This document shows, one piece after another, positions 2,292 to 28,724 of a DNA stretch of 64,000 nt (position 1 is the stretch's first letter; each line of letters opens with the position of its first letter). Source of the stretch: a virus (taxonomy: Duplodnaviria; Caudoviricetes); IMG/VR virus record IMGVR_UViG_3300021256_000011, positions 1 through 64,000 of that record. One strand, written 5' to 3'. The notes beneath the pieces are model-generated. The model was not told the origin of the DNA. It searched no databases and was given only the letters and a program-made list of their open reading frames with translations. The translations under genes were made by a program, and so were the position numbers.

Positions 2292-3509
2292 CTACTTCGT
2301 GTGAAGGATAAACATGTCACGAGGACGGGTAGGAACGCACAGCACGGTGAGTTCGGAGACCCAGTCCTGATACTTGGTACGGGGGTCGTAGCGGTACTCG
2401 ATGATGCCGTGACCGCCGAAGATGGTAGCGCTGATGGCGCTAGGATCCGGACGGAGCGGAACGACATTCTTCTTGATACCGACCTTGCCGGAAGGACGCA
2501 CCAGATAGGTGTCCTTATTGAAGGCCCACAGCTTGTTGCGGACGAGCTTCTTGTTGGTGTCATCCCAAACCTCGACGCCGCAACGGGTCTTGTTGTAGAT
2601 GACCTCATCGGCTCCGATAATAGCCTTGAAGGCAGCCTTGGTGGCATCGTCGGAAGCGGTCGCAGCAATAGCCTTAGCAGTGTTCTGAGCGTCAGCGGTA
2701 ACGCCGGCAGAGACGAGCAGAGCGGGGGTGAGCTGATAGCCGAGAGCGATAGCCCACTTGCTGTGCTTCATATCCTCGAAGAAGGACTCTTCGTTAACCT
2801 CGACGGTCACAGAGTCGTAAACCTCCTTGGCGTCGCGAACCATCTTCTTGATGTCGTTGACAGGGTCGGAAGCGCTACCCTCGGATGTCTTGGCGTCATT
2901 GGTAAACCAACGGGCCGTGCTGGTGAGGGTCGTGATGTTCGCCTGGGGGATCTGAGCGCTGAAGGTGATGTTCTGGATACCGCGAGGGTTGTTGGTGTTG
3001 GTCAAAGTGACGGCACCAACAGACTTCATCTGGCCGACCTGATAGGAGATGGAGCCGATGTGGGCGTCCTGAATCTCGGACAGACCGCCGAACAGAAGTT
3101 TGGCGAGGTAATTCTTGATGCCTTCTTCGGGAGACTGATTCATGAAGGTTGCAGAAACCTGGATGTTCTGCATGGTAATCAGTTCCTTGCGGTAGTCGTT
3201 TTCGCCAAGCTCCCAGCGAGCTTTCTGGCGAGGGATGGAACCACTCAGGGTGTTGAAGCCCTTGGTCCCGAGAGGAATCGGGTCGGAGTTGAGGTCCACA
3301 TAGGTGGCCATCACCTTGATCTGGTCCTCGACCTCAAGCATCTTGTAGTCGAAGTCAATCTGAGGGATGTCCCACTCTTCGAAACCGATTTCGTTCAGGT
3401 TCTGGCTCTCGCGACGGGAGAGAACCTGAAGGTAGTAAGCCATAAAGGCTTCAGACGAGGTGATGCCGTTAGAGGCCATCAGAGTGTCAAGTCCAAAATA
3501 CTGATTCAT
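2292..3509 (-). CDS. major capsid protein
   Basis: 405 aa, strongly biased codon usage, follows scaffold and decoration genes; resembles capsid E-type family. Confidence 0.8.
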   Translation of the reverse strand: MNQYFGLDTLMASNGITSSEAFMAYYLQVLSRRESQNLNEIGFEEWDIPQIDFDYKMLEVEDQIKVMATYVDLNSDPIPLGTKGFNTLSGSIPRQKARWELGENDYRKELITMQNIQVSATFMNQSPEEGIKNYLAKLLFGGLSEIQDAHIGSISYQVGQMKSVGAVTLTNTNNPRGIQNITFSAQIPQANITTLTSTARWFTNDAKTSEGSASDPVNDIKKMVRDAKEVYDSVTVEVNEESFFEDMKHSKWAIALGYQLTPALLVSAGVTADAQNTAKAIAATASDDATKAAFKAIIGADEVIYNKTRCGVEVWDDTNKKLVRNKLWAFNKDTYLVRPSGKVGIKKNVVPLRPDPSAISATIFGGHGIIEYRYDPRTKYQDWVSELTVLCVPTRPRDMFILHTK

Positions 3510-3513
3510 AGTT

Positions 3514-3885
3514 CTACTCGTTTACGAAAGTGATACCAGGGAGAAGAGCCTTGACGGCTGCAGAAATAGAAGGGATGCGCTTTGCGAGCACCTGTCCCTT
3601 GGTCACGACAGTGCCGGTCGCGCCGACGTTGCCGATGTAGACGTCCTCAAGAAGAAGACCTGTGACTCCAGTCTCGGGAGCGGCGGCATCGGGAGCGAGG
3701 ACAGTAGCCTCACCGCCCATTTTCGCCACATACACGACGGAGCCGGCCTTGACGGTCGTGCCCTGGGTCTGAGAGTTCAGGGTGCAACCAGCCGGATAGA
3801 ACTCGTCGGTATGAAGCCAAATGGGGACCTTTCCGGCAGCATAACTCTGGGAGTCATTGTTGAAAGAGTTACCGTAGTTTTTCAT
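3514..3885 (-). CDS. head decoration/cement protein
   Basis: 123 aa Ala/Gly/Val/Thr-rich protein between scaffold and capsid (GLLLEDV...GTVVTKG). Confidence 0.65.
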   Translation of the reverse strand: MKNYGNSFNNDSQSYAAGKVPIWLHTDEFYPAGCTLNSQTQGTTVKAGSVVYVAKMGGEATVLAPDAAAPETGVTGLLLEDVYIGNVGATGTVVTKGQVLAKRIPSISAAVKALLPGITFVNE

Positions 3886-4646: not shown

Positions 4647-4677
4647 CAAATATAATAAAACTTTTTTGTTACACAAA
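4647..4677 (-). promoter_or_regulatory. Bacteroidota sigma-A promoter for the scaffold-capsid operon
   Basis: Minus strand TTTG-19 nt-TATATTTG. Confidence 0.75.
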
Positions 4678-22885: not shown

Positions 22886-22968
22886 AGGCGCCAAGGAGAC
22901 TCGAACTCCCGACCCCATGGTACACACTGGATGCTCCCCATGCGCTCTACCTACTGAGCTAAGGCGCC
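22886..22968 (-). tRNA. tRNA-like RNA 2 with a 17-nt anticodon loop
   Basis: GGCGCCT/TGGCGCC acceptor, GCTC-AGTAGGTA-GAGC, CATGG-(GGAGCATCCAGTGTGTA)-CCATG, GGGTC, GGGAG-TTCGAGT-CTCCT; followed by T-CAA. Confidence 0.8.
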
Positions 22969-23135: not shown

Positions 23136-23236
23136 TTGGATTTTTAGAAAAGTATCAATATTTACCCTTAGAGGGTTTCTCACCCCCGTCGATTCCTTTG
23201 GATCGGCATTTGCGGTTAAAAAATAAGGGTTTTTCG

Positions 23237-23315
23237 TCCCCGCGGAAGGGCTCGAACCTCCGCCCCCCGGCTGACCTCTCATTGAGCCGGATTCTACCAA
23301 CTGAACTACACGGGG
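23237..23315 (-). tRNA. tRNA-like RNA 3 with a 12-nt anticodon loop
   Basis: CCCCGTG/CGCGGGG, GTTC-AGTTGGTA-GAAT, CGGCT-(CAATGAGAGGTC)-AGCCG, GGAGG-TTCGAGC-CCTTC; followed by A-CGA. Confidence 0.75.
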
Positions 23316-26707: not shown

Positions 26708-27034
26708 TAAGTATTTGAATATCAATAAGTTATGCGTAAAGTATTGATAGTCAGTGCTTTATGTTTAGAGGATGTGAGTTTAGTGTATTAGTGTGCTAAT
26801 ACAGTGGCTGTATATGTTGTATATAGGTATACGCGTGTGTGTGCGTATGTGTATGTGTATTTTTGCGTAAATTGTTGATTATCAAGCATTTAAGTTTTTA
26901 AAATAATTTATTTGCATTTTCTCACAAAATAGTGATTAAGTTTTTATAATTCATTGATTATTAATGTGTTACGGCTAAAATTTTTTTCGTTATTTTTTCT
27001 TTGTTTGTATAAGTATTTGATATTCAGGCGTTTA
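26708..27034. repeat. five 25-bp spaced palindromes TAA-N5-TGA-N3-TCA-N5-TTA
   Basis: Start at 26708, 26737, 26868, 26947 (one mismatch) and 27010. Confidence 0.8.
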
Positions 27035-27069
27035 TATAAAAGTCAATTTGGAATATTTCTAAAATAATA

Positions 27070-27101
27070 TTTGTATAGTATTAAAAACCGCCGTATCTTT
27101 G
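27070..27101 (+). promoter_or_regulatory. rightward sigma-A promoter of the early region
   Basis: TTTG-20 nt-TATCTTTG. Confidence 0.8.
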
Positions 27102-27171
27102 CATTAGAGAAAGGGAAAAAGAAACACTCTTTCAGATTTTAAAAACTTTTAACAATTAAATTTATAACATT

Positions 27172-27576
27172 ATGAAAAACACTATTTTTAACGGAATTGA
27201 GAACATGACTAAAAAAGAGATTATTGTCGCACGTTCAACCGCAAAGAAAGAGATCCGCACAACGCTTGCAGATTTTGCGCTATCACTTGAAAGTGCATAC
27301 AAACAATTAACTGCAACGGGTTCAACTTGCAGAAATAGCGCAAACGCTTGCAAAGGGACTTATAAAACAGCCGTTTTGGTTGTTGCAAATTGTTACCCGT
27401 ACCAAACAAAAACGGGTGAACTTTGCACCAAAACAAAGGACGGGTTTAAAATCAAAAATTTGAAAGGGACTGCAACGGCTTACAGCGTTGTGAAAACGGC
27501 TGTTTGCAATTTCATAGACTGGAAAACAGGACGTAAAACCGAATTAGTTCAAATTGTTGAACCCATAACCGAATAA
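27172..27576 (+). CDS. first early gene, basic Thr/Ala/Lys-rich hypothetical protein
   Basis: 134 aa directly after the promoter, with an AT-rich translation initiation region. Confidence 0.7.
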   Translation: MKNTIFNGIENMTKKEIIVARSTAKKEIRTTLADFALSLESAYKQLTATGSTCRNSANACKGTYKTAVLVVANCYPYQTKTGELCTKTKDGFKIKNLKGTATAYSVVKTAVCNFIDWKTGRKTELVQIVEPITE

Positions 27577-27589
27577 CGGAAACACCTCA

Positions 27590-28226
27590 ACCCGTGCACG
27601 GGTGAAACTTTGCACGGGTTCACTAAATCGGACTTTTTAGAACTGCAAGAATTTTCGAAAGGGACTGCAAGCAATTGCACGAACAAGACAGAACCTATTG
27701 CACGACTAAAACAGGCGGACGGTACGAGTGCGGAGGCCGTCTAACAAATAGAAAAACCGACACAGCCCGACTCTGGGAACGGCTGGGATAAGTACGCCCT
27801 TTCCGGAACTGGCAAACGAACGAAAGCAACGGCCGAACGGCCTGCGCTGACTGACTGAGCCACGCCCGAACGAGAGCGGAAAAAAGACTTCATGAAACAG
27901 GGGGAGGGCGCACGAAACGGGGGAGAAAATCCGGATTAGTGCCAAGAATAGAATTAGTGTAGGCATCCAAGAGCGATGTGGCCCGAAACGAAAGAAGAAG
28001 GGCGAATGACGCGAAGACGGGAGTAAGTCCGAACTAGTGGTATAAATAGCGACCTATTGTGTTATGCCGATGACAAGGAACGACACAATAGGGTAAACCG
28101 AAACAACAAACAACGAGCGAGGAGGGAGCCGAAGATCCCGAATTGCAATTTATCGGCCTGGGCTGGGCGACACCGGCTCAGGCTGCCAAGTATTAACCAA
28201 ACGACCGCCGAAGGAGGGCGGAGGGT
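27590..28226 (+). ncRNA. candidate large structured RNA (~600 nt)
   Basis: No credible plus-strand ORF. Multiple helices including 27795-804/27901-910, 28053-062/28083-092 and 28156-166/28173-183, with A-rich linkers. Boundaries approximate. Confidence 0.5.
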
Positions 28227-28535
28227 ATGAATTACTGGGAAAATAAGCAGCGAAACGCTGACCGAATCAACGAGGCGTATTGTGCCCGCCTGAAGAGGCA
28301 CGAAGAACAGCAGAAGGCCGAGCGGATGGCTTGGTATGCCGAGCGGTTCCCGAAGGACCAGCGAATCGTTTACCGTGGCTATGGTTTAGTGACGGATAAC
28401 CATGGCTATACATGGACGATCGCAGGCCTTGGTTACGCTGGATTGCTTGGACTGAGAGAGGCCAAGCGAGCCGTGGACGACTATTTCCGTGCAGTTAATG
28501 CACAGAAGAGGTTTGAAGAACTGGCAGAGTTATAG
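28227..28535 (+). CDS. early hypothetical protein
   Basis: 102 aa, start of the dense plus-strand array. Confidence 0.6.
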   Translation: MNYWENKQRNADRINEAYCARLKRHEEQQKAERMAWYAERFPKDQRIVYRGYGLVTDNHGYTWTIAGLGYAGLLGLREAKRAVDDYFRAVNAQKRFEELAEL

Positions 28536-28547
28536 GAGGGCTGAACG

Positions 28548-28724
28548 ATGAAGTACCGACTTAACGCGATGGCAGCATTTGCTGTAAATATCGAGATTGA
28601 GGCGAACAGCCGTGAAGAGGCGTTTGCCGAGTACGACCGACTGCGCGAACGGGGCGAATTGTCCTGGCAGTTCGTGGGCACTATGGACGTCAACTGCGAC
28701 GAGATAACCAATAACAACAATTAA
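28548..28724 (+). CDS. small early hypothetical protein (58 aa)
   Basis: Read manually: MKYRLNAMAAFAVNIEIEANSREEAFAEY...; not in the ORF track. Confidence 0.55.
   Translation: MKYRLNAMAAFAVNIEIEANSREEAFAEYDRLRERGELSWQFVGTMDVNCDEITNNNN

Follow-up and report, generated by a model that had tools for sequence, protein, structure and literature searches.

Candidate large multidomain RNA without a match in Rfam follows a small basic protein gene in rumen phages with Bacteroidota-type promoters

Large, intricate RNAs without a known function are, to our knowledge, rare, and Firmicutes and their phages account for nearly all of them. ROOL and GOLLD are large, ornate, phage-borne RNAs of unknown function (PMC5737381, PMC12286853), and recent work showed that both assemble from RNA alone (PMC12286853). 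They are found in phages and prophages, often near tRNAs, and usually as separate genes; Firmicutes are among their known hosts, and ROOL was first seen in rumen metagenomes. Here, we analyzed the first 64 kb (64,000 nucleotides, referred to as the window) of a 72.8-kb phage record with direct terminal repeats (IMGVR_UViG_3300021256_000011), in which a stretch between two genes had been proposed as a large structured RNA. Like ROOL and GOLLD, this RNA would be longer than 400 nucleotides, multidomain, noncoding, pseudoknotted, and located in a phage. Unlike them, it is associated with Bacteroidota-type promoters, has none of its own, always comes after a gene for a small basic protein, and has a module duplicated within it. 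The resemblance is one of kind only.

Other structured phage RNAs offer further points of comparison. A catalogue of 8,495 unnamed structured-RNA candidates from IMG/VR intergenic regions includes many tRNA-like structures (PMC10690425). The RNA described here has in common with those candidates the IMG/VR source and the covariation evidence in phage intergenic regions, and the catalogue gives neither names nor functions. The stable RNAs of phage T4 (species 1 and 2, RNA C and D) measure ∼120 to 140 nucleotides, lie in a tRNA cluster, and have no known function. The RNA in the window would likewise be a structured phage RNA within a longer early or middle transcript, the T4 RNAs being released beside tRNA-like processing sites, but its size is three to four times theirs, and the gene before it encodes a protein. 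The pRNA of phi29 (∼120 to 174 nucleotides), found in ∼20-kb Bacillus podoviruses, has a role in the packaging motor and is part of a ribonucleoprotein (RNP) with a phage protein. In both cases, an early promoter would produce a structured phage RNA at the head of a transcription unit; however, we found no similarity between the two RNAs, and the RNA in the window has no link to packaging genes.

Matches to PHROG families for terminase, portal, primase, helicase, and tail fiber genes identify the genome as that of a tailed phage. Leftward genes occupy the window up to ∼26.0 kb, and rightward genes extend from 27.17 kb; the ∼1.1 kb separating the two sets is AT rich. The pattern TTTG-N18-22-TAnnTTTG occurs 12 times in the window versus 0.87 expected matches, a 14-fold enrichment. 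We take TTTG-N20-TAnnTTTG to be the Bacteroidota host-type promoter, in line with the consensus of Bacteroides promoters, and the enrichment suggests that the phage infects Bacteroidota and employs the host σ factor. The 12 sites span positions 4647 to 32276 and are located mainly before leftward genes. A perfect TTTG-N20-TAnnTTTG site on the plus strand (TTTG-N20-TATCTTTG, 27070 to 27101) is the sole plus-strand site ahead of the first rightward gene (gene 1, 27172 to 27576) and the RNA, in agreement with the initial annotation, which had derived the RNA from a promoter at 27070. Since this is the only upstream promoter, and since positions 27577 to 28226 contain neither a further site of the pattern TTTG-N18-22-TAnnTTTG nor a plus-strand terminator-like site, the RNA would be cotranscribed with gene 1. 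Most simply, the whole stretch would belong to a transcript starting near 27108, whose "early" timing is suggested by position only. A 65.5-kb goat-rumen contig binned as Bacteroidaceae bears a distant relative of gene 1, and all related contigs come from rumen-type metagenomes. The phages with this RNA, of ∼65 to 77 kb, probably infect Bacteroidota.

The stretch from 27577 to 28226 is the gap between gene 1 and the next gene, which starts at 28227. Similarity among relatives delimits a conserved core at 27589 to 28050, and the conserved RNA probably measures ∼460 to 500 nucleotides, extending to 28092, which leaves the structured RNA of the initial annotation in place but shortens it from ∼600 nucleotides. 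Its composition is purine rich and U poor (31.5% A, 30.6% G, 23.4% C, and 14.5% U). That the stretch lacks a gene, as had been noted, is borne out by the absence of a conserved frame on either strand, and gene callers left it empty in nearly all fetched loci. A coding origin, i.e., several short plus-strand peptides or a minus-strand open reading frame (ORF), is extremely improbable. This explanation could draw on plus-strand ORFs of 38 to 57 amino acids in the window (57 being the upper limit for the gap) and on minus-strand ORFs of 152 to 229 amino acids placed across the stretch by gene callers in three relatives (L045, L056, and L058). However, every plus frame carries 4 to 12 stops within the first 470 nucleotides in the window and 19 relatives, so that no plus frame is open in any relative, and each minus frame carries 2 to 6 stops in the window. 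In the relatives, minus frames are often open, but this occurs in all three phases, with the open frame differing, because the strand is A poor (the RNA contains only 14.5% U). Moreover, when comparing the window with six relatives, mismatches in gene 1 fall very unevenly on the three codon positions (154/127/383; P ∼ 1e-39), whereas those in the RNA show no codon periodicity (272/224/246 modulo 3; P = 0.10).

Between the window and its nearest relative, L039, the RNA differs at 37 of 460 nucleotides and gene 1 at 77 of 402, showing that the RNA is the better conserved of the two. The 650-nucleotide stretch folds with a z-score of −3.75 on the plus strand (0 of 20 shuffles fold as well) versus −0.99 on the minus strand, while the core at 27589 to 28050 gives a modest signal (z-score of −2.1; 1 of 100 shuffles). 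One 468-nucleotide contig, a relative of ∼95% identity, covers positions 27469 to 27941; it comes from a library labeled metatranscriptomic that is probably DNA, and three RNA runs were without a match.

To compare the element with described families, we used cmscan with the 4,227 models of Rfam 15 on the window at the gathering score, on positions 26900 to 28700 at an E value of ≤10, and on seven relatives at an E value of ≤1. In keeping with the initial annotation, which could not assign the RNA to a family, neither the element nor the seven relatives had a match, and the three matches in 26900 to 28700 were at chance level (E values of 3.9 to 6.3) and all outside the element. ROOL (RF03087) and GOLLD (RF01998) were found in none of these searches, and no match in the element was obtained for OLE, HEARO/omega RNA, raiA, group I or II introns, RNase P, tmRNA, 6S RNA, or self-cleaving ribozymes. 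No IscB/TnpB, reverse transcriptase, or intron ORF adjoins the RNA. The element does have the features of a large ornate phage-borne noncoding RNA, with a length of more than 400 nucleotides, no conserved ORF, compensatory changes in several helices, and at least one pseudoknot. We are thus confident in describing it as a member of a large, multidomain structured RNA family without a match in Rfam 15, a well-supported addition in phages with Bacteroidota-type promoters.

Relatives were collected through the gene 1 protein from IMG/VR and JGI metagenomes, as well as by exact look-up, which yielded ∼30 distinct downstream regions after removal of near duplicates. Every fetched locus whose gene 1 is at least ∼55% identical has a homologous ORF-free stretch 3′ of the gene 1 stop codon. 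About 20 distinct relatives from rumen metagenomes carry the RNA, with gene 1 identities of 60 to 92%; RNA similarity to the window is highest in L039 (91% identity) and in others falls as low as patchy blastn matches. The RNA was not detected with either covariance model (R1 or R2, described below) next to distant gene 1 homologues of ∼40% identity. Long ORF-free stretches also follow such distant homologues (L017, positions 2888 to 3740; also L031, L032, L034, L019, and L036 to L038). The one in L017 comprises 853 nucleotides, has a fold z-score of −3.8, begins with a hairpin or tRNA-like fold, and matches neither R1 nor R2. These stretches may be analogous, diverged RNAs. One contig (L002) encodes the next gene of the window at 92% identity and has no copy of the RNA upstream of it, showing that the RNA travels with gene 1 and not with the downstream gene. 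Searches for the RNA apart from gene 1, by two motif scans of IMG/VR, returned only known contigs or 28 unrelated matches that R1 rejected. In addition, a look-up of the RNA sequence found only its own genome, and phage GenBank records gave no blastn match.

The predicted RNA begins 14 nucleotides after the gene 1 stop codon with P1, a 9-bp hairpin (ACCCGUGCA/UGCACGGGU, 27590 to 27619). Folds of 20 close relatives place stems of 9 to 13 bp and unrelated sequence (for instance, AAUUGUGUGGAC/GUCCACACAAUU, CCUAUAGCGGU/ACCGCUAUAGG, and AAUCCGGGCG/CGCCCGGAUU) at this position, starting 10 to 20 nucleotides after the stop codon, often with loops that resemble a T-loop (UUCGAAU- or UUGAAUG-like). P1 is followed by UCACUAAAUCGG, with no direct U run, and thus does not have the form of an intrinsic terminator. 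Among relatives, this 5′ element shades into a tRNA-like fold, suggesting a way in which such RNAs are excised from operons. This raises the alternative that P1 and its scaffold act as a tRNA mimic or decoy that titrates or redirects tRNA-handling host factors, such as RNase P/Z, the CCA-adding enzyme, anticodon nucleases, or other tRNA-directed defenses. Consistent with a decoy, ARAGORN reports, in L046 as the only relative, a tRNA-like element that runs from the end of gene 1 into P1, T-arm-like hairpins (GGUUCGAnnCC) occur at the P1 position in L036, L038, and L059, the same phage has tRNA-like genes with aberrant anticodon arms, and one relative has a tmRNA. Nevertheless, P1 of the window is a plain hairpin without an acceptor end or CCA, the remaining parts of the RNA (modules A and B, the pseudoknot, and domain C, all described below) are without tRNA likeness, and neither ARAGORN nor the Rfam tRNA and tmRNA models make a call in 27577 to 28226. 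We therefore consider this alternative quite improbable.

P1 is followed by module A (27625 to 27716), a junction module closed by the long-range helix Pa1 (27633 to 27640 with 27706 to 27714), whose pairing explains the conserved strands GGACUUUUU and AAACAAGAG. Inside Pa1 are Pa2 (27644 to 27648 with 27698 to 27702) and the hairpin P2 (27666 to 27670 with 27675 to 27679), together with the conserved junction strands AAAGGGAC, CGAAC, and CACGA. The next region (27717 to 27763) contains the hairpin P3 (27717 to 27722 with 27737 to 27742). For module A and P3 (27625 to 27750), we evaluated 25 proposed pairs in a plain MAFFT alignment of 20 sequences (A6). Paired cells amounted to 88.8%, compared to 74.1% after shuffling, a control that ignores the relatedness of the sequences here and in the other covariation tests, and to 40 to 48% when the strands were slid. 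The covariation score was 0.361 versus 0.128 (shuffled) and ≤0.106 (slid), and 16 of the 25 pairs vary in both partners. The same picture emerges from the covariance model R2 and from its alignment A7, which was fitted to that model and thus leans toward it. Two G-U pairs of P3 are kept in 18 of the 20 sequences, which fixes the plus strand as the one that folds.

The loop of P3 is predicted to form an H-type pseudoknot (PK1). In the window, as read from the sequence, loop nucleotides 27728 to 27733 (GUGCGG) would pair with 27757 to 27759 and 27761 to 27763 (CCG-A-CAC), leaving A27760 bulged. The partner strand is located ∼10 nucleotides downstream of P3, across the conserved linker UAUAGGUAA. 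Relatives realize the same pairing with quite different sequences, such as GUCCGUU/AACGGAC, UCCAUGU/ACAUGGA, GCCAAAU/AUUUGGC, CCGCUAU/AUAGCGG, and CCUUUGC/GCAAAGG. In a plain alignment of 17 relatives (A8), all 7 pairs change on both sides, and the covariation score reaches 0.539 versus 0.190 for shuffled and ≤0.117 for slid controls.

This pattern bears on the notion that the stretch acts as DNA, e.g., as an origin, a packaging site, or an array of protein sites, or that it consists of decayed gene remnants whose hairpins stem from composition. Short motifs do recur (ACTGCA, GGGACTGC, and CGAAC), module A contains a 14-nucleotide echo of gene 1, and an AT-rich regulatory region is located 0.5 kb upstream. 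On the other hand, each conserved G-U pair would turn into an A-C mismatch if read on the opposite strand, compensatory changes extend to a pseudoknot, for which DNA sites have no need, the genome shows no enrichment of GGGACTGC, and a region more conserved than its neighboring gene does not look like decay. Both versions of this explanation are very improbable.

Downstream of PK1, a middle region (27764 to 27906) holds module B, which repeats the module A core (ACUG...GGAC-hairpin-CGAAC...CACG) in diverged form. Model R2 finds it as a second match (27795 to 27878; 28.5 bits; E value of 2.6e-5), and the corresponding site is matched in most relatives; modules A and B are the only matches of the RNA module model in the genome. 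Module B includes Pb2 (27810 to 27813 with 27859 to 27862) and the hairpin P2′ (27831 to 27834 with 27839 to 27842), and its Pa2-like helix varies between UGG/CCA, UGA/UCA, and UGC/GCA. The middle region also carries a conserved GGG-AUAAGUAYR-CCC. The corresponding hairpin, an alternative closure of the middle domain with GGG at 27785 to 27787 and CCC at 27797 to 27799, is invariant among relatives and hence uninformative for covariation.

The 3′ part of the core (27907 to 28048) forms domain C, a five-helix domain composed of Pc1 (27910 to 27913 with 27939 to 27942), Pc2 (27918 to 27921 with 27930 to 27933), Pc3 (27953 to 27958 with 28033 to 28038), Pc4 (27966 to 27968 with 28020 to 28022), and Pc5 (27973 to 27975 with 28010 to 28012), with an additional GG/CC pairing (27962 to 27963 with 28029 to 28030) and an optional hairpin (27981 to 27984 with 28000 to 28003). 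Seven sequences and a structure set by hand went into its model, R1, which then served to align 19 distinct sequences (A5). In this alignment, which leans toward the model to which it was fitted, paired cells reach 97.5%, both partners vary in 16 of 22 pairs, and the covariation score is 0.491 versus 0.117 for shuffled and ≤0.097 for slid controls. The register of Pc1 is settled by a change from GCAC/GUGC to GCUC/GAGC. We relied on hand-anchored structures and covariance models because RNAalifold returned empty or poor structures when whole-domain MAFFT alignments contained the most divergent loci, and because a naive scan of column pairs failed owing to register slips of one column.

Taken together, positions 27589 to 28050 very probably encode a functional folded RNA on the plus strand, with compensatory changes well above both shuffled and slid controls among the ∼20 distinct relatives that the homologue search provided. 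This upholds the central claim of the initial annotation, although its individual helices fared differently. All are present in the window at the expected positions, and most are part of the minimum free energy (MFE) fold: a perfect 10-bp helix at 28053 to 28062 with 28083 to 28092, a helix at 28156 to 28166 with 28173 to 28183, GGACGG/CCGTCT at 27717 to 27722 with 27737 to 27742, GGCC-GAAC-GGCC at 27831 to 27842, and CCGCC/GGCGG at 28205 to 28221. The 10-bp long-range helix that had been given prominence (CGCCCTTTCC, 27795 to 27804, with GGGGAGGGCG, 27901 to 27910) exists in the window with two G-U pairs, but it is paired in only 62.8% of cells in relatives and shows no change on both sides, so that it does not hold as a structural feature. 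The pairing CAGCC/GGCTG is not conserved either, being absent from L010 and others. The predicted order of parts is the P1 hairpin or tRNA-like element, module A, P3 with PK1, module B, domain C, and a swappable 3′ module.

The last 130 to 170 nucleotides of the stretch are not shared with most relatives, which bear a different conserved 3′ module, so that the 3′ end of the RNA appears to be modular. In the window, domain C is followed by H1 (28053 to 28092), a 10-bp hairpin with a conserved 20-nucleotide loop. This lineage-variable 3′ module is common to the window and L014 only; the stems (CCUAUUGUGU/ACACAAUAGG in the window versus CCUACUACGC/GCGUAGUAGG in L014) differ by four compensated pairs, while the loop is kept. 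The module found instead in L011 (positions 3330 to 3450) and, at the same place, in L013, L016, L039, L040, L042, L052, L053, L056, and L058 consists of a 13-bp hairpin with the loop GGAUGAAA, followed by CCGCUUUAAUGUUACC, a variable hairpin, and GUCCAAAGUCACUAAC. H1 is followed by an A-rich spacer (28093 to 28204) that is specific to the window, gave no blastn match in the fetched loci, and contains a hairpin of the MFE fold (28156 to 28183). Finally, the hairpin CCGCC-GAAGGAG-GGCGG (28205 to 28221) shows the Shine-Dalgarno (SD)-like GAAGGAGG in its loop, 6 nucleotides before the ATG of the next gene (28227 to 28535). Relatives retain GGCC-GAAGGAG-GGCC or CGCC/GGCG right before their next gene, and the hairpin covaries. 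Bacteroidota make little use of SD pairing, and an SD-presenting hairpin is odd for a Bacteroidota phage.

This hairpin brings up the alternative that the element is never a free RNA but a cis-acting intercistronic leader that sets the stability, processing, or translation of an early polycistronic mRNA. Such a leader could, for example, uncouple a highly expressed gene 1 from the small genes downstream, block nucleases, or gate the SD hairpin before 28227. The lack of an own promoter or terminator, a placement, seen in every relative, with gene 1 on one side and a long series of small genes on the other, the conserved presentation of GAAGGAGG just before the next start codon, and a U-poor composition that would remove AU-rich nuclease sites are all in line with this idea. 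However, an element of ∼460 nucleotides comprising a pseudoknot, two copies of a junction module, and a domain of five helices far exceeds the needs of known leaders, the downstream gene differs among relatives while the RNA stays (and L002 has the next gene without the RNA), and the 3′ module is swapped independently of the core. We regard a pure leader function as possible but rather unlikely.

Gene 1, which always precedes the RNA, encodes a basic protein of 134 amino acids (pI 9.5; 17 K, 4 R, 3 D, and 8 E). The protein has 419 homologous clusters in public metagenomes and belongs to no Pfam or PHROG family; its Protein Atlas neighbors are unnamed phage clusters. An AlphaFold (AF2) model (pLDDT of 89) consists of four helices, a beta hairpin, and one long helix, and neither Foldseek nor an exhaustive aligner found a significant match to it in the PDB (best Z-score, 3.8). 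Leads from the Protein Atlas toward a closterovirus coat protein and a T4 RegA-like translational repressor (0.77 to 0.81) were at chance level and discarded, as Pfam gave no confirmation. At the nucleotide level, the 14-nucleotide string GAAAGGGACTGCAA occurs within gene 1 at 27462 to 27475, where it encodes K-G-T-A, and again in module A at 27657 to 27670, with shorter echoes seen in relatives. The gene 1 mRNA segment carries GAAAGGGACUGCAA, and AACTTTGCAC is common to gene 1 and P1. The repeated string could be a shared protein site or the trace of a duplication. As a genome-wide binding motif, we also considered GGGACTGC, and rejected it given its lack of enrichment in the genome.

Because the RNA was found only together with gene 1, whose small product is basic, and because a module is duplicated, we tentatively favor a reading in which both act together, a reading that is possible though still doubtful. 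According to this model, the RNA would be made on the plus strand as part of the transcript from the 27070 promoter, with gene 1 encoded first; the folded particle would be released or stabilized, perhaps by tRNA-processing enzymes acting at P1; the duplicated modules, which could be repeated binding sites, would bind the co-conserved gene 1 protein to form an RNP; and this RNP would act in host takeover or counterdefense. A point against the RNP is that the gene 1 protein matches no known RNA-binding fold or family. A more specific version, i.e., a new class of phage RNP in which a ∼500-nucleotide RNA is cut from the first early transcript by host tRNA-processing enzymes, takes up several copies of the gene 1 protein, and disables a host defense or RNA-processing machine in rumen Bacteroidota, would be unlikely in all its parts. 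If an RNP in takeover or counterdefense were true, it would assign a function to one member of a class for which this has so far proved difficult. The system is experimentally approachable, with a single small linked protein gene, a strongly covarying pseudoknot, and an internal module duplication. Given that the family is abundant in rumen data, as indicated by the 419 gene 1 clusters, a deeper alignment, probing, and cryo-electron microscopy are feasible.

Other RNA and RNA-related genes were observed in these phages. Two matches to the tRNA model (47 and 42 bits) are located on the minus strand of the window, at 22886 to 22968 and 23236 to 23315, and ARAGORN reads one of them as a tRNA with a 4-base anticodon that it could not determine. 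The relative L014 carries a full-length tmRNA on the minus strand (positions 89 to 424; Rfam score of 72 bits, with a tag peptide called by ARAGORN), ∼2 kb upstream of its gene 1. Within the first 350 nucleotides (minus strand) of L040, L042 to L045, and L058, an RNase T-like exonuclease (PF00929) is encoded on the strand opposite to gene 1 and two genes upstream of it.
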